Of a stretch of 64,000 bases of DNA, positions 20,122 to 30,840 are shown in pieces. The notes beneath the pieces are model-generated. The model ran no database searches. It worked only from the letters and a program-made list of their open reading frames with translations, and had not been told where the DNA came from. Source of the stretch: Gemmatimonadota bacterium (lineage in GTDB: Bacteria; Gemmatimonadota; Gemmatimonadetes; Gemmatimonadales; GWC2-71-9); the NCBI GenBank assembly GCA_039591655.1, contig JBDHDE010000003.1, positions 1 through 64,000 on the forward strand, in the 5' to 3' direction. Every line of letters starts with the position of its first letter. The first letter of the stretch is position 1. The position numbers were made by a program, and so were the translations under genes.

Positions 20122-20172
20122 ATTAAGGCAGCCGTAACCCCGCGTGAAGGACCGATGGGCTGTTTGTGAAGG
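20122..20172 (-). promoter_or_regulatory. 11-bp-periodic direct repeats (OmpR/PhoB-type site candidate)
   Basis: ATTAAGG (20122), CGTAACC (20133), GTGAAGG (20144), GTGAAGG (20166), upstream of the DUF2892-Cyc2-cyt c genes. Confidence 0.4.
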
Positions 20173-20193: not shown

Positions 20194-21594
20194 CTAGGCG
20201 GTCGGGGGGGTGCGGGGCAGCTCGAGGGCAACGGCAAGCCCCCCTTGGATGCTCCGTCCTGCCTCGATCCGGCCGCCGTGCGCCTCCACGATGGCGGCTG
20301 CAAGCGTGAGTCCCAGACCTGCGGCCGCGCCGGCGCGGGTGCGTGCGTGGTCACTCCGATAGAACCGCTCGAAAAGGCGCGGCAGCACTTCATTGGGCAG
20401 CCCCGGCCCATCGTCCTCCACCGTTATCCTCACATTTGCGGAATCGGCGGTCACACCGGCACACACCCGCGTGCCCTCGGGTGTGTGCTTAATGCCGTTG
20501 TCGAGCAGTTGATCGATCACCAGAGTCAGCATCTTCGCGTCAACGGAGGCCGTGGCGTCGCCGGCTCCCTGTGCTGCCGTGAGAGCGATCTTTCTGCCCT
20601 CGGCGCGTGCCTGGGCCTTGCGCACTGCTCGGGCGACCAGGTCCCTCACGTCACGAGTGATCCGCTCGGGCTTGAGCGTGGCGGAGTCGAGGCGCGCCAA
20701 CATGACCAGGGACTCGCTGAGAGACGCCAGGTGGTCGACCTCCTCCAATACACTGGAGAGTACGGCACGGTACTCGTCGGGGCGCCGCTCGCCCCGTAGG
20801 GTGACCTCCAGCTCGCCGCGCATCGCGGTGAGTGGTGTGCGGAGATCGTGGCCTGCGTCGGCGATCATGCGGCGCTGAGTCTCGAACGCCTGGTCGAGGC
20901 GCTCCAGCATGCCGTTGAGCACCTTGACCAGTCCCGCGAACTCCTGCACATCGGCGTGCTCGGTGATGCGCTGGCCCACCGCGCCGGGCCTGATTCCCTC
21001 TGCCTGTTGGGTGATCTCCTCCACCGGTGTCACGCTGGAGCCGGCGAGCCAACCCGCTCCCAGGGCGCTTGCCGCGGTCCCCAGGAGGACGGTCCCCAGC
21101 AAGAGGAGCAGCACCCGGCGATTGGCCAAGTGCAGCGGGCGCAGTGATGCCGCTACCTGGACCACTACCTGGTCCGCGCCACCCCTCAGAGGTACCGCCC
21201 CGTAGTACGAGCGAACGGCTTCGGGCTCCCACTCCTGGGTCGTCCACACCTGATCGCCGTCCCTCGCCCGCTCGAAGCTGTCCGTGTCCAGGGGAAGGCC
21301 GCTGGCCAGCGGCGTGTTGGTCGCCAGGACGGTGTGGTCCTCGGCTCGCACCACCACGAAACGGTTCACCGCGTCGACGAACCCTTCGAGATCCGACGGC
21401 TCCGCGTGCACCGCGATGGGAAAGCCGGCACCGATAACGGCGAACTCGAGCTGCGCCACGGCAGCGAGCCCGTGGTCCAGCTCCTCACGTAGGATTCGCT
21501 GGGCGCCGAGGTATGCCCACAGCGCGATAAACAGGAGCGCAATGAAGATGGTGAGGGAGAACCGCACGGCGAGCGTGCGGCGCAGGGAGTACAT
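20194..21594 (-). CDS. Membrane sensor histidine kinase (HAMP-HisKA-HATPase)
   Basis: Two TM helices, DAGHDLRTPL, LLDNGIKH, DDGPG, FERFYR, GLGL. Confidence 0.93.
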   Translation of the reverse strand: MYSLRRTLAVRFSLTIFIALLFIALWAYLGAQRILREELDHGLAAVAQLEFAVIGAGFPIAVHAEPSDLEGFVDAVNRFVVVRAEDHTVLATNTPLASGLPLDTDSFERARDGDQVWTTQEWEPEAVRSYYGAVPLRGGADQVVVQVAASLRPLHLANRRVLLLLLGTVLLGTAASALGAGWLAGSSVTPVEEITQQAEGIRPGAVGQRITEHADVQEFAGLVKVLNGMLERLDQAFETQRRMIADAGHDLRTPLTAMRGELEVTLRGERRPDEYRAVLSSVLEEVDHLASLSESLVMLARLDSATLKPERITRDVRDLVARAVRKAQARAEGRKIALTAAQGAGDATASVDAKMLTLVIDQLLDNGIKHTPEGTRVCAGVTADSANVRITVEDDGPGLPNEVLPRLFERFYRSDHARTRAGAAAGLGLTLAAAIVEAHGGRIEAGRSIQGGLAVALELPRTPPTA

Positions 21595-22277
21595 CAGTCT
21601 GTGTGGCCGTTCTTCTTGAGGCAGAATCCGACGCCACGAACCGTCTGGATCAGTCCGTCGAATCCCGCCTCACGCAGCTTGCGCCGCAGGTTTCCAACGT
21701 GGACATCGACGACGTTGCTCTCCGGATCGAAGTGCATGTCCCACACCTTCTCGAGCAACTCCGTGCGGCGCACCACGTCTTCGGGGTGCAACATGAAGTG
21801 CTCGAGGAGCTGGAACTCCCGCGGCGTGAGATCGAGGAGCTCCTCGCCGGCCCAGGCTTTGTGCTTCAGCCGGTCCAGCTCCAGCGGTCCGTAGGACAGC
21901 CGATCGAGCCGTGCTGCACCGCCCCGGCGCACCAGCGCGCGCAGCCGCGCCAACAGTTCGTCGAACTTGAACGGCTTGGTGAGATAGTCGTCGGCGCCGG
22001 CATCCAGGCCGCGCACCACGTCCTCGGTCGCGTCCCGAGCAGTGAGCATGAGAATGGGCGTGTTCCGCCCCTCGCGGCGCAACTCAGAGGCCACCTGTAG
22101 GCCGTTCTTCTTGGGGAGCATCAGGTCGAGCAGGATTGCGTCGTAGTCGTTGATGTGGGCGAACACGGTGGCCTCTTCGCCATCCTTGGCGACGTCCACT
22201 GCGTAGCCCTCCTCCCGAAGGCCCATCTCGATGAAACCAGCGACCTTGCGGTCGTCTTCGACTACGAGGATCCGCAT
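21594..22277 (-). CDS. OmpR-family response regulator (CusR/CopR-like)
   Basis: MRILVVEDD, LLDLMLP, GADDYLTKPF, wHTH NVVDVHVGNLRRKL...TVRGVGF. Confidence 0.95.
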   Translation of the reverse strand: MRILVVEDDRKVAGFIEMGLREEGYAVDVAKDGEEATVFAHINDYDAILLDLMLPKKNGLQVASELRREGRNTPILMLTARDATEDVVRGLDAGADDYLTKPFKFDELLARLRALVRRGGAARLDRLSYGPLELDRLKHKAWAGEELLDLTPREFQLLEHFMLHPEDVVRRTELLEKVWDMHFDPESNVVDVHVGNLRRKLREAGFDGLIQTVRGVGFCLKKNGHTD

Positions 22278-22313
22278 TGTGGACAACCCTAGCCGTGACG
22301 GGCTATATGGTTG

Positions 22314-22342
22314 TTTAATCGAAGGTTAACGCCTCTTTATGA
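22314..22342 (-). promoter_or_regulatory. 11-bp-periodic TTAA-like repeats upstream of the response regulator
   Basis: TTTAATC (22314), GTTAACG (22325), TTTATGA (22336). Confidence 0.4.
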
Positions 22343-23578
22343 TGCCGCGACCTGGCGCGGAACCCGCAGGATGAAGCGCGCTCCCTTGCCGACCTGGCTC
22401 TCCACGTTGAGCTCGCCGCCCAGAAGCCGCGCCAGCTTGCGCGAGAGCGCCAGACCCAAGCCCGTCCCCCGCTCGGTCTGGTGTCCGGCCCGCTCGAACG
22501 CCTCGAAGATCACCGCCTGCTGCTCGGAGGCGATGCCCTCACCCCGATCCACCACGTCGAACCGGAGGGTACCGTCCGTGACGCGTAGCTCGACGTCGAT
22601 CGCCTCGTCCGGTGGGCTGTGGCGCACCGCGTTGGTGAGCAGGTTGATGAGAATCTGGCGCACGCGCTGCGGGTCGGTGCGGCAGGTGACGGCCTCGTCG
22701 GGTCCGGTGAGCGTGATCTTGACACCGCGACGGTCGGCGGCGGGCTCCACGGTGGACACCGACTCTCTTACGATGCTCCACGCGTCGGAGTCCTTGATCA
22801 TCGGCTCGAGTTTGTCGGCCTCTAGTCGGGAGAGATCCAACAGGTCCTCGAGCAGCGTGAGCGCACGCTCGGCTGATTCCTGCACCTCCAGTGCGGAGCG
22901 CGGAGTATCGGGCGCGGTCTTGCGGATCCACAGCTCGGTCCAGCCGTGGACGGCGGTGAGCGCGTTGCGCAGCTCGTGGTTAGTCATGGCGAAGAAGCGC
23001 TCCCGCGAGTGGTGCAGCTGCCGCAGCTGCTTCAGCAGGCCCTCCCGCTCGGAGAAGAATCGCGCGTTCTCCACCGCGACCGAGGCGTGGCTGGCCAGCA
23101 TGACCGCGAAGGCTTCGTCCTCCGGCGTGAACTCCGAGCCGCCTTCCTTTTCCGCGAGGTAGAGGTTCCCGATCGTTTCGTCCCGACCGATGATGGGGAC
23201 GCCGAGGAAGGACCGCATGTGGGGATGGTGCTCGGGGAAGCCGTACGCGCGCGGGTCGCGGGTCACGTCCCTCACCCGCAGGGGCTTGGGCTCCCGGATC
23301 AGCGCGCCGAGCACGCCCCTGCCCCGGGGCAGTTCGCCGATCTTGCCGTGGGCCTCCTGGGGGAGCCCGCTGGTCACGAAGGTCTCCAGCGCCGTGCCGC
23401 TCTCGTCGAGGATGCCGAGGGCCGCATACTGCGCGCCGATCACGAAACGGGCCGACTCCACCACCTCCTGGAGCACGCGGTCCAGTTCGTGTTCGGCGGT
23501 GATGCGGATGGTGGCCTGGGAGAGGCGCTCGACCCGCTGCCAGATCTCGTGGTTGTCCGCCCGGGAGGTTGGCGACAT
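22337..23578 (-). CDS. Cytoplasmic GAF-domain histidine kinase, DosS/DosT-like heme GAF
   Basis: GRGVLGALIREPKPLR...GFPEHHPHMRSFLGVPI...GNLYL; HELRNAL; NLLTNAVRH; GTGLGL. Confidence 0.85.
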   Translation of the reverse strand: MSPTSRADNHEIWQRVERLSQATIRITAEHELDRVLQEVVESARFVIGAQYAALGILDESGTALETFVTSGLPQEAHGKIGELPRGRGVLGALIREPKPLRVRDVTRDPRAYGFPEHHPHMRSFLGVPIIGRDETIGNLYLAEKEGGSEFTPEDEAFAVMLASHASVAVENARFFSEREGLLKQLRQLHHSRERFFAMTNHELRNALTAVHGWTELWIRKTAPDTPRSALEVQESAERALTLLEDLLDLSRLEADKLEPMIKDSDAWSIVRESVSTVEPAADRRGVKITLTGPDEAVTCRTDPQRVRQILINLLTNAVRHSPPDEAIDVELRVTDGTLRFDVVDRGEGIASEQQAVIFEAFERAGHQTERGTGLGLALSRKLARLLGGELNVESQVGKGARFILRVPRQVAAS

Positions 23579-23718
23579 ACGGGTGGAAGCTATGTAAGGC
23601 CGGGCCGGGGTGGAAGGGTGGCCGGCGGCCCCGTCCCGTGCGGCAGCCCTCCCGCCGGGGGTGTCGCACCGGCGCCAGGGACGATAATCTCCCCGTAACC
23701 CCAACCGCGCGATCGGCC

Positions 23719-24450
23719 GTGGATCCCACGCTGACCGTCTTGCTGTACTCGTCCCTGGCCGCGGCAGCGGCCGGGCTCGGGATTGCACCGCTGATGGTTA
23801 GCAAGCGCCTCGCCCTGGCCCGGATTGGCTGGGCCAACGCCTTGGCGGCGGGGCTCATGCTGGGCGCCGCCTACGCCCTGATGGTGGTGGGGATCCAGCC
23901 GCTCCCCGTGACTGCGGCCGCAGGCTCTCTCCTGGGCATCGGCTTCGTGTACTGGACTCACGCGGTGTCGGGCACGGCGGACATGGACCTCAACCGCCTG
24001 GAAGAGACCAGCGTCGATTACGGCTACAAGGTCCTGTTGGTCACCGGGCACCACGCCGCCGCCGAGGGGATCGCCATCGGCGCGGCGTTCGTGGTGAGCG
24101 TTCCGTTCGGCATCTTCATGGCCCTGGCCATCGCTGTGCACAACGTTCCCGAGGCCACGGTGCTGTGCTCCATCCTCACGGGCCGCGGCGTGCGGCTGAG
24201 GGATGCCGCCGGGCTCGCGGTGGCGACCAATGTGAGCCAGATCCTCCTTGCAATCGTCACGTTCGCGATCGTGACGGCCGCGCCCGGAGTGCTTCCCTGG
24301 GCGGTGGGCTTTGCCGTGGGAGCGCTGGTCTACCTGGTGATGGCCGAGCTGCTGCCGGAGTGCTACCGGCAGGCGGGACCCACGAGCATTGCCCTCGTGA
24401 CGATCGTTGCGATGGGGATCGTGGTTCTGTTGAGCAACCGGGGACTTTGA
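23719..24450 (+). CDS. ZIP (ZupT/GufA) family metal transporter
   Basis: AAGLML, HAAAEGIAIG, AIAVHNVPEA, ELLPE. Confidence 0.85.
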   Translation: MDPTLTVLLYSSLAAAAAGLGIAPLMVSKRLALARIGWANALAAGLMLGAAYALMVVGIQPLPVTAAAGSLLGIGFVYWTHAVSGTADMDLNRLEETSVDYGYKVLLVTGHHAAAEGIAIGAAFVVSVPFGIFMALAIAVHNVPEATVLCSILTGRGVRLRDAAGLAVATNVSQILLAIVTFAIVTAAPGVLPWAVGFAVGALVYLVMAELLPECYRQAGPTSIALVTIVAMGIVVLLSNRGL

Positions 24451-25190
24451 CGGTGCCGGTCCTGGACCCGGTGCTCCTCGTCTTTCTCTATGGGCTCTTC
24501 ACGGCCCTCGCCACGGGACTCGGGGCGCTCCCCTTTGCCTTCGTCCGCTCGGTCTCGGCACGGGCCGTGGCGTACGCCAATGCCATCGCCGCGGGACTGA
24601 TGCTGGGGGCGAGCTTCGGGCTCGTCGCCGAGGGCACGCAATACGGAGCGTGGCAGACACTCATCGGCGCCGTGCTCGGCGTGCTGTTCATCCTGGGGAC
24701 GCAGCAGTACCTCAAGACGCGCCAGATCGAGTTCGGGAGGGTACGGGGCGGCGGAGCGCGTCGCATGCTCCTCATCATGGTGGTGATGACGGTGCACTCC
24801 TTTGCGGAGGGCGTGGCGGTCGGGGTGGCTTTCGGCGGGAGCATGACCCTCGCCGTCGCCATCGTGTTGGCTATCGCCGTGCACAACATTCCGGAGGGGT
24901 TGGCGATCAGCGCGGTGTTCCGCCCGCGCGGCGTCTCGGTGGCTGGGTGCGCCGGGTGGAGCATCGTCTCATCGCTGCCGCAGCCGTTGATGGCGGTGCC
25001 GGCCTACCTGTTGGTCGAGACGTTCACGTCCGTGCTTCCTTACGGCATCGGGTTCGCCGCGGGCGCCATGGTGTTCATGGTGTTCGTGGAGCTACTACCG
25101 GAGGCGTTCGAGGTGGGCCGCAAGCCCCACGTTGCGCTCCTGACCTCCGCCACCCTCGTGGCGATGGTCGTGTTCCAGCAGTACCTGTAG
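24447..25190 (+). CDS. ZIP (ZupT/GufA) family metal transporter, second paralog
   Basis: ATGLGALP, VHSFAEGVAVG, AIAVHNIPEG, GFAAGAM, ELLPEA; TTGA overlap (alternative GTG at 24453). Confidence 0.9.
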   Translation: MTVPVLDPVLLVFLYGLFTALATGLGALPFAFVRSVSARAVAYANAIAAGLMLGASFGLVAEGTQYGAWQTLIGAVLGVLFILGTQQYLKTRQIEFGRVRGGGARRMLLIMVVMTVHSFAEGVAVGVAFGGSMTLAVAIVLAIAVHNIPEGLAISAVFRPRGVSVAGCAGWSIVSSLPQPLMAVPAYLLVETFTSVLPYGIGFAAGAMVFMVFVELLPEAFEVGRKPHVALLTSATLVAMVVFQQYL

Positions 25191-25345: not shown

Positions 25346-26968
25346 TTAGAACGGCTTGTACCCCGGCGAGCCGAAGGTCTCCATTGCCAGGTGATCGGCC
25401 AGCGGGTACGCGTAGGCGATCGCCACCAGGATCACGGCGACCACGACCCAAGCCCAGATGCGATCGAACACCACCAGCTTGGTGGGCTCTCCTTCCAACG
25501 GCTCCGCAAACTCGAGCGTCGGCTGCTCGGCCTTCGGACCGGCCAACACCGTGCCTAGCATGCTGAGCAGGAAGAACGACGCGGAGACGAACAGCAGCAC
25601 GCCTCCTGCGGCGGATATGAGCGTGAGTCCCTCCCACTGTGTGGCGGCAAGACTGCCGCCGTAGCTCGTCTCGTAGACACGCCGTGGCATGCCCATTATG
25701 CCCGTGATGTGGTTCGAAATGGAGAACAGCAGCATCCCGACGAACCATAGGTACGGCTGCCACTTGGCAAGCAGACCGAGCTCCAGATCCCGACCTACCA
25801 GCTTCGGTACCAGCCAGTACGCAACACCCATGAAGGTGAGCGCCACTGCGGAGCCCACGGTGAGATGGAAATGTCCCTGGATCCAGGCCGTGTTGTGCAC
25901 CACCGCATTCATGCCGTACGCCGCGTTGATGGCGCCGCCGAAGCCGCCAACGGCGAACAAGATCATGCTGAGGAGCACCGCCGCCACCATGGGGTTGTTC
26001 CACGGCAGTTTGGCGATCCAGTCGAACAGTCCCCTGGCGCCGCGCATGCGGCCCGCGACCTCCAAGGACGCGGTCACGGTGAACGCCGTGACGAAGCTGG
26101 GGAAGAGGATCGCGAACGTGGTGACGGTGTGTGCCAGCTTCCATCCGGCGGAGATCCCGGGGTCCATGAACTGGTGATGGAATCCCACAGGCGTGGACAG
26201 GATGATGAACAGGGCGAACACCATCCGCGCCAGCGGATCGCTGAACAGCTTCCCGCCGGCCTCCCGCGGCACCACGGAGTACCACACGACGTAGGCGGGA
26301 ATGAGCCAGAAGTAGACCAGCGGGTGGCCGAAGAACCAGAACAGCATGCGGGCCAGGAGCGGGTCTACCGTCTCCTTGAGCCCCAGCGACCACGGGATGA
26401 GCTGGAACAGCATCTCCGAGGCCACACCCACCGTCGCGAGGTACCACACGATGATCGTGGTCAGGATACCGTGCACCGCCAGCGGAACCGGCGTGCCGGG
26501 GTTGTCCTTCTTCCACGCGAAGTAGCTGGCGATGATCACCGCGCCCCACACCCAGGAGCCGACGACCAGTAGCGTGGCGCCGATGTAGAACGCCGAGTGT
26601 GCCTGGAGCGGTGGGTAGAAGGTGTAAAGGACAGTGGCTTTGCCCCACAGGATCGCCCACGCAACCATGGCCGTTCCGACGGCGGCGATCCAGAACCCGG
26701 CCCATGCCACGCGTGGCCATTTGAGCGGCCGCTCGAGAGCGCGGGTCGTGAACGCGATCCCGAGACCCATGATGAAGAACGTGGTGAACACGATCGCCAT
26801 CAGGACGCCGTGGCCGGTCACCGAGAGGTAGTACATCTTGGCCGAGCGCCAGGGGAGGTCGAGGCTGGCGCGCGACAGGGCCTGCATCAGAGCCATGAAC
26901 GTCGCGATGCCGAACGCGACCACCGCGACGCCGATGTTTGCCGTGGCGAGACGTCGATTGTGGATCAT
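25346..26968 (-). CDS. cbaA: B-family (ba3-type) heme-copper oxidase subunit I
   Basis: VTGHGV, FWFFGHPLVYFW (His-Tyr), GFHHQF, GHFHLTVG, GMPRR. Confidence 0.92.
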   Translation of the reverse strand: MIHNRRLATANIGVAVVAFGIATFMALMQALSRASLDLPWRSAKMYYLSVTGHGVLMAIVFTTFFIMGLGIAFTTRALERPLKWPRVAWAGFWIAAVGTAMVAWAILWGKATVLYTFYPPLQAHSAFYIGATLLVVGSWVWGAVIIASYFAWKKDNPGTPVPLAVHGILTTIIVWYLATVGVASEMLFQLIPWSLGLKETVDPLLARMLFWFFGHPLVYFWLIPAYVVWYSVVPREAGGKLFSDPLARMVFALFIILSTPVGFHHQFMDPGISAGWKLAHTVTTFAILFPSFVTAFTVTASLEVAGRMRGARGLFDWIAKLPWNNPMVAAVLLSMILFAVGGFGGAINAAYGMNAVVHNTAWIQGHFHLTVGSAVALTFMGVAYWLVPKLVGRDLELGLLAKWQPYLWFVGMLLFSISNHITGIMGMPRRVYETSYGGSLAATQWEGLTLISAAGGVLLFVSASFFLLSMLGTVLAGPKAEQPTLEFAEPLEGEPTKLVVFDRIWAWVVVAVILVAIAYAYPLADHLAMETFGSPGYKPF

Positions 26969-27441
26969 ACGCCCCCCTCCACGATCAACGTTGCGCCCAT
27001 GTTGTGATGACCGAGGCCGCAGTACTCGTTACACGTGATCAGGTACTCGCCCGGTTCGTCGAACGTCATGGTGAACTGGCTGACGTAGCCCGGGATCACC
27101 ATCGTGTTGCCGTTCGTCCCTACGATCTGAAAGCCGTGGACGACGTCGGCGCTCGCGATCCGGAACGTGACCGGTGTGTTGGCGGGCACCCTGATCTCGT
27201 TCGGCTGGAATGCGAACATCATGGCGAGCATCGTCACTTCGACGCTGCCGTCTGGATTGGTCGTCACCCCGCGCTGGGCGAAGCGTGCGTCGGACCAGAC
27301 GTTGCGGGGGTCGACGGTCTCTACGTGGCTGGGCGGCAGCCGGCCCTGGGACACGGTGGCGAATGCGATCGCGCCGAGGAACACCACGATGATCGCGCCT
27401 GCGCCCCACATCCAGATCCGCTCGTATAGATGCACATGCAT
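26965..27441 (-). CDS. cbaB: ba3-type oxidase subunit II (CuA)
   Basis: YERIW, DVVHGF, CNEYCGLGHHNM. Confidence 0.92.
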   Translation of the reverse strand: MHVHLYERIWMWGAGAIIVVFLGAIAFATVSQGRLPPSHVETVDPRNVWSDARFAQRGVTTNPDGSVEVTMLAMMFAFQPNEIRVPANTPVTFRIASADVVHGFQIVGTNGNTMVIPGYVSQFTMTFDEPGEYLITCNEYCGLGHHNMGATLIVEGGV

Positions 27442-27447
27442 GGGCCG

Positions 27448-27588
27448 TTACCTCATCACCGCGCCGCGCGGGAGGTAGATGAACAGGAAGAAGGCAAACC
27501 ACCCGATGACGAACAGCGCGCCGTACAGCCCGACGAGGGCCAACGTGCCACGCGGGTGCTTGCCGACCTCGGAGTGCTGATCGCTCAT
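27448..27588 (-). CDS. ba3-type oxidase subunit IIa
   Basis: 46 aa, PRGTLALV...W...F..YLPRG single TM; AAGGAG RBS. Confidence 0.8.
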   Translation of the reverse strand: MSDQHSEVGKHPRGTLALVGLYGALFVIGWFAFFLFIYLPRGAVMR

Positions 27589-27629
27589 GAGCTTCTCCTT
27601 ACTGGGAACGGACGTGAACGGACCGTGAA

Positions 27630-28019
27630 CTAAAGCCTGCCGGTTGCGAGCGCGCGCACGATGTCGCTCTGGGCGATCACGCCGACTAGCTCGCCGTCTT
27701 GCTCCACGAACAGGCGGTGCACGTCCAGGGAGAGCATCTCCTGAGCCGCCTGCTTGACGTCCTGGTCGGGGCTGATGGTCTGCGGTGGCGACGTCATGAT
27801 GTCGCGCACGAGGATCTCGCCGAAGCGCCGCTCGCCCTCCCCCTCGGCCGCGCTCTGCAGGATATCGCTGGAGGAGAGCACCCCCACGAGACCCCCGCGT
27901 CGATTCACGACCGGCACGCCGTGTACGTGAGCATCGGCCAAGGAGACGATGGCCTCCGCCACCGACACGTCCTGGTTCACGATGGCGAGTTCCGTCTGCA
28001 TCAGCTCCGCCACTCTCAT
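27630..28019 (-). CDS. CBS-domain pair protein
   Basis: MRVAELM, GVPVV, LVGVLSSSDI, VRDIMT, LVGVIAQSDI. Confidence 0.9.
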   Translation of the reverse strand: MRVAELMQTELAIVNQDVSVAEAIVSLADAHVHGVPVVNRRGGLVGVLSSSDILQSAAEGEGERRFGEILVRDIMTSPPQTISPDQDVKQAAQEMLSLDVHRLFVEQDGELVGVIAQSDIVRALATGRL

Positions 28020-28181
28020 TGCGACCTCTGGCGCTGGAAACGCCGGTACGAAGTCTGGAGCGGTACCGGTCCGGCGCTAGGCGCCGCCGCATCCGCTGTT
28101 CAGAAGGAGGATAGTCTAACGCGTCGGTACGGCTTCGTCACGCTCGTCTTGGTTGACGGGGTCAACGATCACGCAGTGGGA

Positions 28182-29048
28182 TTAGCGGCGCGGGCCGACA
28201 GGGACCACCAGGACCGATGCTGGGAGCCGGTTGAGAAGGCGCTCGGTCGTGCTTCCGAGCAGCACGCGATCCACCCACCCCTTACCGTGGGATCCCACCA
28301 CAACCATGTCGGCACCCCAGGCCTGGGCCTCGTCGCAAATGACGCGGCTCGGCGTGCCGCACTGCACTTCCTGCGCCACGGACATTCCGTCCAGGGCGCG
28401 CGCGACAATGCGACTGAACTCTCGCTCCGCAGTCTGCAGGTGCTCCTGTTCGTCCAGCTGGACCGCGACGTCGGGAATGGGTGGAAACGGCTCGACGGCG
28501 TGGAGTGCCCGTAGCTCGGCTGCGAACAGCGCCGCGAGATGCGCGGCCATCTCGAGCGTCGGGTCGGCAGCGTCGGAGAGGTCCGCCGCGACCAGCACCC
28601 GACCGACGTCGGGTCGCGTCGAGGCCGTCACGAGGACCGGCACGTCGATGGTGCGCACGGCATGGTGCACCGTGCTCCCCCCGAACCATCGGGCGGGCGC
28701 GGAGTGGCGTTTCCCGCCGAGCACCAGGAGCCCGGCCCCGTAGCCGCTGACGGCCGCCGCTAGCTCCCAAGCGACATTGCCGCGCCGCACCTCGAGGTGA
28801 TCCGGGGTCTCCGGCGGCGCGTTCTCCTGCAGCGCGGCCACCACCTGCTCCCGGGCGACGGAGGCAGCCTTGGCGGCGACCACGCTCTCGTCCACCGCGG
28901 CGGGCACGCTGGGCAGGTGCCGCGTCACGTGCACCAGGTGGCAGGGGACCCCCGCCGCCTCGGCCGTGCGCCAAGCCATCGCTGCCGCCAGGGCGCCCTC
29001 GGGCGAGGCGTCCACTCCTGCGACCACCGCTTTCCACTGCATCGTCAT
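28182..29048 (-). CDS. Tandem universal stress protein
   Basis: VVAGVDAS...LLVLG...GGST; VLVAADLS...DMVVVGSHG...LLGSTTERLL. Confidence 0.92.
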   Translation of the reverse strand: MTMQWKAVVAGVDASPEGALAAAMAWRTAEAAGVPCHLVHVTRHLPSVPAAVDESVVAAKAASVAREQVVAALQENAPPETPDHLEVRRGNVAWELAAAVSGYGAGLLVLGGKRHSAPARWFGGSTVHHAVRTIDVPVLVTASTRPDVGRVLVAADLSDAADPTLEMAAHLAALFAAELRALHAVEPFPPIPDVAVQLDEQEHLQTAEREFSRIVARALDGMSVAQEVQCGTPSRVICDEAQAWGADMVVVGSHGKGWVDRVLLGSTTERLLNRLPASVLVVPVGPRR

Positions 29049-29192
29049 CAGCCGTGCTCCATGATGGGCCCCCGTGGCCGACGAGTCTACCACCTCGCCG
29101 GACGGCCCGTCAAGAACCCGAAAGCCACGCCGTGAAGTCCCATTCAGGCCGAATTCACCGCTCCTTCATGACGCCCTGTCTAGTCTCCGTGC

Positions 29193-29438
29193 GGTGGCCC
29201 GTCAGGGTCACCACTGCGGGAATGCCCTAGGAGGGAAGGGCCGGCGTTCGCGACGCCGCTGAGGTTTCGAGGGGCTCCGCATCGGCCGCAGGCAAGGCGA
29301 ACGGGATCGTCAGGCATGTAACCCGATGCACGATTCGAGGAGACCCTGCGCTACGATCGAATGGTAGCGCTGGAACCGAGACCTCGGAGGGGAATCCCCC
29401 ACCCCCGGTGCACGGGAGGGCACCGGGGGTTTTGTTTT
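29193..29438 (+). ncRNA. Candidate structured non-coding RNA (family not identified)
   Basis: Nested helices across 29193-29398, possible -10 TAGTCT at 29181, own plus-strand terminator, no credible ORF. Confidence 0.55.
29401..29438 (+). terminator. Intrinsic terminator (plus strand)
   Basis: ACCCCCGGTGC-N8-GCACCGGGGGT followed by TTTGTTTT. Confidence 0.85.
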
Positions 29439-29442
29439 GGCC

Positions 29443-30840
29443 CTAGCCGTTTAGCGGCACCGTCTCGCCGTCTCTCGCAGGCCGGACGTTCCAGCCCAGT
29501 TCTCCACGGATCGCCGCCGACAGCGCCAGTGAGCCGGTGGGCTCACCGTGCACCAGGTAGGTGGCGCTGGGTGGACGGCGGAATCCCGCCAGCCAGCGCA
29601 GCAATTCCGACTGATCCGCGTGGGCCGAGAGTCCGTGGAGCGTCCTCACGGTGGCCCGCACCGGCCACTCCTGGCCGTGGATGCGGATGAGCTTGGCCCC
29701 GTCCTGGAGACGGCGGCCGCGCGTGCCGGCTGCCTGGAAGCCCACCAGGAGGACCGTGGTGCGGCGGTCGGGCAGCCGCAGCTTGAGGTGGTGCAGGATT
29801 CGCCCACCCGTGGCCATCCCGCTGGCCGAGATGATGATCACCGGCCCCCGGACATCGTTGAGGGCAATGGACTCCTCCCGGGAGCGGGCGAGCTGGAAGT
29901 GGTGCGGCCGCAGAGGGTCTTGCCCCGCGTCGGTGAGGGCCTGCATGTCGAGGTCATGCTCCTCGGTGTGGCGCAAGTAGAGATCCGTGACGTCGATGGC
30001 CATGGGGCTGTCCATGTACACGGGGATGGCGGGAATCCGTCCGTGGTCCTCGAGCTGCCGCAGCCGCCACAGCAGCTCCTGGGTGCGCCCTACCGCAAAA
30101 GCGGGAATGACGATGGCGTGACCGTGCTCCGCCCCCTCCCGCACGATGGCGGCCAGGTCCCCGTCCGGGTCGTGTTCGTGGGACCGTCCACCGTAGGTGG
30201 ACTCGCTCACCAGGAAGTCCGTTTCCGAGATGAGCTCTGGGTCGTGCAGGATGGGGCGGTCCCAGCGCCCGAGGTCGCCCGAGAAGACCAGCCGGGTCCC
30301 CCGCCCGGCATCCAGCAGGCACTGCACCGTCGCGGAGCCCAAAATGTGGCCGGCGGGTCGGAACTGGGTGGCCATGCCGGGCACCACCTCGAAGGCCTCG
30401 CCGTAGAAGCGCGGATCTACCAGGTCCAGCGCGGCCTGGGCGTCCTCGCGCGTGAACAGGGGAAGGGCGGGTCGGTGCTTGGAGTACCCTTTGCGGTTGG
30501 CGTGCTCGGCCTGCTCCTCCTGCAGGTAGGCCGCGTCGGGCAGCAAGACACCCAGTAGCGAGGCTGTAGCAGCTGTGCAGTGGATTGGGCCGCGGAACCC
30601 CCGGCGGGCCAGGACCGGGAGGTACCCGGAGTGGTCCAGATGTGCGTGACTCAGGACCACCGCCGCGACGTCCTCCGGGTCATAGCGGGGGTCGTTCCAG
30701 TTGCGCAGCCGCAGGTCCTTGAGCCCCTGGAAGAGGCCGCAGTCCAATAGCGTGCCCCGCCCGCCGACGGTGACCAGGTGCTTGGACCCGGTCACCGTCT
30801 CGGCGGCGCCTAGAAACCGCAGTGTCGCTCCGCTCATCAC
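29443..30840 (-). CDS. MBL-fold beta-CASP ribonuclease (YSH1/TTHA0252-like)
   Basis: LGAAETVTGS, SHAHLDH, AGHILGS, SGDLG, ESTYG, SAHAD. Confidence 0.92.
   Translation of the reverse strand: MMSGATLRFLGAAETVTGSKHLVTVGGRGTLLDCGLFQGLKDLRLRNWNDPRYDPEDVAAVVLSHAHLDHSGYLPVLARRGFRGPIHCTAATASLLGVLLPDAAYLQEEQAEHANRKGYSKHRPALPLFTREDAQAALDLVDPRFYGEAFEVVPGMATQFRPAGHILGSATVQCLLDAGRGTRLVFSGDLGRWDRPILHDPELISETDFLVSESTYGGRSHEHDPDGDLAAIVREGAEHGHAIVIPAFAVGRTQELLWRLRQLEDHGRIPAIPVYMDSPMAIDVTDLYLRHTEEHDLDMQALTDAGQDPLRPHHFQLARSREESIALNDVRGPVIIISASGMATGGRILHHLKLRLPDRRTTVLLVGFQAAGTRGRRLQDGAKLIRIHGQEWPVRATVRTLHGLSAHADQSELLRWLAGFRRPPSATYLVHGEPTGSLALSAAIRGELGWNVRPARDGETVPLNG

Follow-up and report, generated by a model that had tools for sequence, protein, structure and literature searches.

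The stretch 29193..29436 on the plus strand of the 64,000-nt window (the whole piece of Gemmatimonadota DNA that was analysed) almost certainly holds a functional, transcribed gene for a stand-alone structured non-coding RNA (ncRNA). Judged from comparative sequence evidence, it represents a structured ncRNA family that is new, predicted to be regulator-driven and without a match in Rfam. The stand-alone reading follows from its homologs, their covariation, a conserved promoter, the lack of a conserved ORF and the changing neighbours of the locus. The gene is approximately 245 bases long and is present in one copy in the source genome. Its start (~29192-29193) is predicted from the -10 element and its end, in a U tract, from an intrinsic terminator (29401..29439, +) composed of an 11-bp stem (29401-29430) plus the U tract, the sole plus-strand terminator within 28500-30200. 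The neighbours are a divergent tandem universal stress protein (USP) gene (28182..29048, -), with a predicted divergent sigma70-type promoter (29084..29113, -), and a convergent gene of a beta-CASP metallo-beta-lactamase RNase (29443..30840, -). The nearest real plus-strand CDS, a ZIP gene, ends at 25190, 4.0 kb upstream. The first-pass annotation had described the locus as a self-terminated stand-alone ncRNA with a strong plus-strand terminator, both flanking genes on the minus strand and the upstream plus-strand CDS about 4 kb off, and all of this is supported. The terminator loop (29412-29419, ACGGGAGG) is identical in 19/19 close homologs, which exceeds what a terminator needs. Further upstream, two ZIP transporter genes stand in tandem (23569-25190, +) within an otherwise minus-strand low-oxygen cluster, and 25346-28092 (-) encodes a two-subunit heme-copper oxidase (COX1, COX2), which looks like a high-affinity, ba3-type enzyme, with a small ORF upstream and a CBS gene.

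A scan of the whole window with Rfam 15 at the gathering threshold gave no match for the ncRNA. At E<=10, the region 29050-29460 returned only three weak, terminator-type matches (E 0.3-6) and none to raiA, 6S or a riboswitch, the known classes brought up by the first-pass annotation. The source genome has an SRP-like RNA on contig C17 and a tmRNA on another contig, and an SRP RNA or tmRNA identity was rejected as these copies sit elsewhere. SD-led ATG frames were found in 9/44 homolog cores with none common between them, and a small-ORF reading was rejected because no such frame is shared across the 44 cores. Folding against 200 shuffles gave z values of -4.82 on the plus strand and -3.19 on the minus strand, so the plus strand beats its shuffles, a comparison proposed at first pass; but without the terminator z was -3.2, and 1/25 control windows of the same contig reached -3.24. 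Because this control folds equally well, folding energy by itself is not decisive, and the case for the RNA rests on homologs.

For the predicted fold, covariation among homologs is decisive. On 19 close homologs, a 77-pair structure has 95.0% of its cells paired and 27 pairs with double changes; none of 500 shuffles reached this covariation, slid controls pair 39-49% of cells, and one-sided changes preserve G-U pairs on the plus strand. From 5′ to 3′, all on the plus strand, the RNA consists of P0, a UGCGGGA leader, P2 and P3, a long arm, an A/G-rich linker, a pyrimidine strand and the terminator. P0 (29193..29212) is a 5′-terminal hairpin, free in sequence and supported by covariation, which is predicted to shield the 5′ end by analogy with DrrS (PMC5360333). 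The leader (29213..29223), with UGCGGGA, is conserved and unpaired. The P2 hairpin (29224..29241, GCCCY/RGGGC) carries a purine loop, and the P3 hairpin (29242..29258, pairing 29242-29247/29253-29258) abuts it with zero spacer and a nearly invariant junction; the paired positions of P2/P3 are invariant in sequence. The long variable arm (29259..29387), which covaries, is built on P4 at its base (29259-29269/29377-29387), followed by P5a (29270-29278/29339-29347), P5c (29279-29285/29323-29329) and the side hairpin P6 (29348-29370). Its apical internal loop (29286..29322), in which a GGCCGC motif faces GNAA, includes a hairpin (29296-29311); it lies 29-34 nt from the start of P4 and is present in 42/44 homologs. 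The arm is the variable part of a core that ranges from 98 to 208 nt (44 homologs). A purine/A-rich linker (29388..29394) leads to the pseudoknot strand.

All pairings listed at first pass are present in the sequence, including the two mismatches of 29218-29228/29388-29398, and P5a pairs as proposed with one G-A mismatch that had been omitted. Six of the seven nested helices proposed there are supported by covariation. The closing helix (29218-28/29388-98) has 0 double changes and a pairing probability of ~0.01, and no covariation links the leader to the 3′ strand. Two suggested pseudoknots (ATCGT/ACGAT and CGCAGG/CCTGCG) also show 0 double changes, and taken together with the closing helix they are equalled by 233/500 shuffles. 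The hairpins 29224-41 and 29296-311, the covarying pseudoknot and the promoter had been missed. As a side observation, GGGA is repeated in loops of the close subtype, and its terminator-loop and apical copies are specific to that subtype.

Permutation of loops and strands shows that the P2 loop (29229-36), the 5′ strand, is predicted to pair with 29395-400 beside the terminator, forming a long-range pseudoknot. The 3′ strand (29395..29400, +) reads UCCCCC here, with one A-C mismatch, and is perfect in most homologs; the mismatch, at the fifth pseudoknot pair, occurs in 8/44 cores, source genome included. This strand is not fixed in sequence and tracks its own loop (GAGAA/UUCUC, GGAUGA/UCAUCC). 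In permutation tests in which kin are not independent, 27 distinct loop/strand combinations gave a mean cognate Watson-Crick helix of 5.30 bp vs. 4.27 +/- 0.15 for permuted pairs (0/10000), and one sequence per genus (13 genera) gave 5.46 vs. 4.05 +/- 0.27 (0/20000). The leader gave no signal in the same test (3.62 vs. 3.64). The permutation tests are the fair measure, as the anchored pseudoknot table takes the best register and is biased. The pairing rule is also obeyed by L141, L145 and L147, which were found with a 5′-only model that did not use the pseudoknot strand. Within the close subtype, a double change is seen at a single pseudoknot pair only. The strand lies outside the terminator stem, with no overlap.

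The RNA family comprises 47 distinct homologs (44 cores and three found later with the 5′-only model; genus g56 was added from a pattern search), spread over 13 genera that all belong to a single family of Gemmatimonadota. On 19 close members of this collection the covariation of nested helices proposed as a check at first pass was found. BLAST located homologs in 14/61 relatives, among them 10/10 other genomes of the genus, and the first covariance model reached divergent copies from other genera. A pattern scan of a species-genome collection returned 22 stretches, 20 of them homologs (19 titled Gemmatimonadota, Gemmatimonadales or Gemmatimonadaceae) and two discarded after reading as chance matches (L024, L026); metagenomes gave 17 homologs out of 21 stretches, with L039, L047, L049 and L054 discarded likewise. 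The 5′-core pattern matched 35/401 family genomes, 32 of which were true after reading; L082, L086, L092 and L093 were chance matches. Beyond the close subtype the search relied on a model covering 74 positions at the 5′ end, which scored 32-40 candidates in each genome and yielded matches in 39/151 family genomes at E<=0.01, of which 22, in 12 genera, were verified; 11 weak R2 matches were rejected after reading, and the weak G098, G020, G106, G168, G131 and G143, as well as L223, were left out. A truncated G009 copy was excluded from the 44 cores. Also discarded as chance were 7 weak R2 matches outside the family, a second G018 match, two viral matches, L222, and two matches in a 121-genome sample from the phylum of L026. 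Neither 79 genomes from the phylum's other families nor 121 genomes of another phylum gave a homolog, and viral contigs and plasmids held no true homolog; these were filtered samples, from which absence is not implied.

Neighbours of the RNA change from genus to genus. The downstream gene is convergent in 7 of 17 loci (L001, L012, L013, L069, L073, L075, L079) and, outside this set, in L141, while a same-strand ORF lies <80 nt downstream in 4/17 (L072, L074, L080, L081), two of the encoded proteins being LTXXQ-like. Genera g1, g13 and g68 have the beta-CASP gene as their convergent neighbour; the other genera examined do not. Divergent copies have Hsp20, USP, CBS, sulfocyanin, cytochromes c, nitroreductase, FeoB and YgaP among their neighbours. 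In L070 (G031), what appears by eye to be a tRNA-Leu-like gene comes right after the RNA homolog, with a divergent pyrophosphatase gene upstream. Two other loci, L155 and L156 (G220, G251), are nearly identical over >=300 bases in genomes of different families, probably as a mobile element end.

The promoter is conserved among all homologs. Three TTCA direct repeats with an 11-bp period (29143, 29154, 29165; 29143..29168, +) form a predicted OmpR-type activator box, and a -10 element (TAGTCT, 29181..29186, +) lies 12 nt past the last of them; 11-bp direct repeats replacing the -35 are typical of OmpR/PhoB activators. A further TTCA half-site, the fourth, is inverted (29133..29136, -) and frequent in the close subtype; it may belong to the divergent USP promoter. 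Three NTCA boxes at the 11-bp period with a -10 element were present in 47/47 homologs, scoring 9-12/12 and >=10 in 45, a score reached by 0/5000 random windows of the source genome. In the -10 element, the A at position 2 and the T at 6 are invariant (47/47), and P0 starts ~5-7 nt past it (32 sequences). Elsewhere, the box motif was found at 44 sites in 9/10 other family genomes, and reversed controls gave 0. A matrix made from only those 44 foreign sites ranked the RNA promoter second best in the source genome, at 34.1 bits, vs. a maximum of 17.6 bits for the reversed control. Pfam analysis of 30 box-downstream ORFs identified USP, Hsp20, CBS, cytochrome c peroxidase, NiFe hydrogenase, POR, flavodoxin, peroxiredoxin, dodecin, DsrE, DUF302 and an OmpR-type regulator, a gene set that we take to resemble the regulon of DosR, itself a NarL-type regulator. 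DrrS/MTS1338 of the DosR regulon is alike in its DosS-type sensor, its 5′-terminal stem-loop and the co-regulation of USP and Hsp20 (PMC5360333). It differs in that there is no sequence or Rfam match, the present fold is far more elaborate, and the control here is by an OmpR-type regulator and 11-bp TTCA repeats.

A candidate sensor and a candidate activator are encoded in the same window. The GAF histidine kinase (22337..23788, -), a predicted gas sensor, has a GAF domain nearest to mycobacterial DosT/DosS (against structures, E 3.8e-40 to 2vzw and 2.4e-36 to DevS 2y8h). Its gene lies ~6 kb from the RNA here and ~3-6.5 kb from it in 10 genomes, and relatives are present in 127/151 family genomes. 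Adjoining it is the gene of an OmpR-family response regulator (21594..22286, -) that is 85% identical to the G068 regulator, whose gene directly follows a full box. Upstream of the window regulator is a degenerate box (TTAA-N7-TTAA-N7-TATA-N12-TAGGGT, 22286..22329, -) with the same spacing, under the 14-bit threshold. The assignment of this regulator as the activator of the box is circumstantial, since the source genome encodes four clear OmpR-type regulators. We infer that the ncRNA is probably induced at low oxygen, because of the box regulon and the nearby DosT/DosS-like kinase. Further high-scoring boxes in the source genome are at C12:24737 (-), C12:24357 (-), C25:10417 (+), C8:3590 (+), C19:10767 (-), C5:26421 (-), C10:39372 (+) and window position 20148 (-). 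By eye, the genes after them encode a small protein, aconitase, a xanthine-dehydrogenase-like 2Fe-2S subunit, a HypB-like protein, a molybdopterin oxidoreductase, a cytochrome and a YgaP-like protein.

Other RNAs appear to stand behind the same box. A second, different structured RNA was noticed at L178:1548-1745 (+), L181:1270-1497 (-), L213 and L214 (G068, G095, G134, G156; genera g48, g75). Its stems covary by eye, its C/U-rich loops are conserved, a terminator ends it and speD/speE-like genes lie convergent to it; it gave z values of -3.77 and -2.17 and no Rfam match. Its pattern occurred in 4/151 family genomes, and in none of these was the first RNA verified. In L180:1228-1497 (-; G082) the box precedes a third non-coding region, of ~265 nt, with a terminator, a z of -4.09, no Rfam match and, by eye, a possible 9-bp loop-loop pairing. 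In L196:1290-1497 (-; G099) the box is followed by ~200 nt without evident ORF, whose z of -1.39 is not significant. Rfam at E<=1 on eight loci (divergent homologs and other box-driven RNAs) returned nothing.

As to function, RNA polymerase (RNAP) is our leading guess for a partner because the regulon is of a dormancy type and Rfam 6S was not found in this order; by analogy, a 6S/Ms1-like binding of RNAP is possible, and we put it forward tentatively. Low oxygen, sensed by the DosS-like GAF kinase, would act through the OmpR-type regulator to turn the ncRNA on. The RNA would then bind and hold a large protein machine, most plausibly RNAP, in the manner of Ms1, 6S and CoRP during dormancy. In such a complex the P2/P3/pseudoknot core would clamp both RNA ends into one compact unit, the long arm would hold a second conserved loop approximately three helical turns away, and the RNA may contact two sites; the two end hairpins would probably confer stability. 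The invariant P2/P3 pairs, the end-clamping pseudoknot with its loop-tracking pyrimidine strand and the second motif, fixed at 29-34 nt despite a varying arm, suggest a tertiary fold read by a protein rather than plain antisense. RF00013 6S was found in 0/42 genomes of the family, 0/24 of the sister family (these being the order's two main families, 66 genomes in all) and 11/101 phylum genomes overall, all of other lineages. Species without 6S or Ms1 can carry unrelated RNAP-binding RNAs (PMC11077062). This reading is weakened by the patchy distribution and the missing bubble: there is no rod with an open central bubble, and the apical loop motif is missing in 2/44 homologs. The RNA cannot be the general 6S substitute of the family, because it was verified in only 22/151 genomes, while the kinase has relatives in 127/151.

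By eye, the apical internal loop, carried here by an arm that is long and irregular, is alike to that of the phylum's 6S RNAs. 6S is, however, a ~180-nt rod with an open central bubble, while the present RNA is multibranched and ~245 nt long. In 6S a -35-like apical motif lies at a set distance from the bubble (PMC3988568); here the motif is 29-34 nt from P4 in 42/44, a likeness seen by eye for which the profile is negative. A profile comparison between the phylum's 6S RNAs and these RNAs scored at best 0.8 bits (shuffles up to 2.9), an apical-only profile at best 2.7 bits, none at the apical loop (shuffles up to 6.9), and RNA model R1 gave no match to 6S loci; as the profile comparisons were negative, descent from 6S was rejected. 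Several phylum 6S genes sit in the zapA-rny gap, unlike this RNA, whose promoter is a regulator box. In the source genome that gap (L107; C28, ~23910-24010) is only ~97 nt and has no Rfam match. Ms1 (PMC9130861) is alike in size (230-300 nt) and in short hairpins at the 5′ and 3′ ends (P0 and the terminator here), but it has a central bubble, which is absent here, and in the present RNA a covarying pseudoknot joins the ends. Ms1 binds the RNAP core free of sigma, and 6S the sigma-RNAP holoenzyme, for which it templates pRNA. Ms1/scr3559 and CoRP are likewise stand-alone, occur where 6S is undetected and are tied to non-growth; they belong to another phylum with other neighbours, and RNAP binding is only a candidate role here.

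Instead of holding a protein, the RNA might regulate the low-oxygen response by base pairing, either with a seed (the UGCGGGA leader or a released C/U-rich strand) like RoxS/RsaE or as a sponge with G-rich loops like RosA/RsaI, which we consider somewhat unlikely. RoxS/RsaE answers to NO and to the ResDE/SrrAB two-component system (PMC4409812), a two-component, respiration-linked control alike to the one proposed here, and RosA is a stand-alone sponge of 225 nt with G-rich single strands (PMC8216469), alike in both features. In favour, the leader is fixed in sequence and single-stranded, and loops of the close subtype repeat GGGA. Yet the 3′ strand co-changes with its own loop and contains no fixed anti-SD; in contrast to RoxS/RosA, a covarying pseudoknot holds the C-rich strand, and GGGA in the terminator loop and the apical loop is confined to the subtype. 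By a crude test, exact complements of four unpaired stretches occur at 0-5 other sites of the source genome, none obviously at a start codon. Neither Hfq nor CsrA (PF02599) was found in the source genome (95% complete). A CsrB/Rsm sponge was rejected on the missing CsrA and on GGA loops that are subtype-specific or paired.

The protein could also be of another kind, with the RNA acting as a compact, raiA/OLE-like RNP scaffold that binds ribosomes, KH-domain proteins or the beta-CASP RNase in dormancy; we regard this as unlikely. raiA RNAs, too, are built as a pseudoknotted core from which arms of varying make-up extend (PMC12968392), and they are alike in their 200-250 nt, single copy, optional arms and trans-acting context. 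The convergent beta-CASP neighbour of g1, g13 and g68 also fits, but its absence beside the RNA in other genera does not, no partner gene co-travels with the RNA, and raiA hallmarks are missing. raiA has a long closing P1, bulged at GU and GGU, in which the 5′ and 3′ termini pair (PMC12968392), where the ends here are separate hairpins; a conserved UUAGACGUAA linker after PK1, absent here; and a PK1 from the P3b apical loop to an internal linker, where the pseudoknot here joins a 5′ loop to the 3′ end. raiA is reported mainly from Bacillota and Actinomycetota, beside comFC/raiA (PMC10861870).

It is quite improbable that the RNA binds a ligand, is catalytic or attenuates in cis, with an H-type pseudoknot and the A-rich linker forming a pocket and the 3′ strand abutting the terminator controlling read-through. 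The dimensions would suit such a role (a 5-bp stem, a second stem of 5-7 bp, zero spacer and an A-rich linker), as this kind of pseudoknot geometry resembles small aptamer folds, and so would the four loci with a close same-strand ORF. This reading is countered by the convergent next genes in 7/17 loci and L141, with no consistent same-strand gene, by a terminator stem that the pseudoknot strand does not overlap, and by the lack of an Rfam riboswitch or ribozyme match. A divergent raiA-motif RNA, the resemblance suggested at first pass from a GCAGGCAA..CG stretch (24/47) and a downstream CCUGC (31/47) in the close subtype, is highly improbable: RF03072 had no match at E<=10 or in the whole source genome (control genomes gave none either), the linker TTAG-N1-4-GTAA was found in 0/47 homologs, GCAGGCAA itself in only 24/47, the PK1 candidate CGCAGG/CCUGCG uses strands of covarying helices and does not covary, and the topology differs from the published raiA fold described in PMC12968392.

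Among the papers listed by literature searches there was no ncRNA study on Gemmatimonadota, and no 6S RNA work on the phylum was retrieved, although a supplement, preprint or subscription-journal motif catalogue could hold the family. The family is well supported, has a fold of its own and comes from a phylum that is abundant but little studied. For an orphan structured RNA the lead is unusually concrete: the promoter box is sharp, a regulon goes with it, and both sensor and regulator have candidates. With a core of 98 nt, L076 is the shortest homolog and represents a minimal pseudoknot module that suits probing or cryo-EM. The box supplies the motif of a proposed Dos-like low-oxygen regulon for the family. 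That Gemmatimonadales place an RNAP-sequestering RNA under direct control of an oxygen sensor, with the pseudoknot-clamped RNA as a new structural class and the seemingly unrelated box-driven RNAs of other genera (L178/L181/L213/L214, L180) taking the same place, all of them independently built dormancy RNAs, is a speculative and distinctly unlikely extension. If the RNA does bind RNAP, it would put to the test the idea that RNAs of this kind are universal in bacteria, including those that lack 6S and Ms1.
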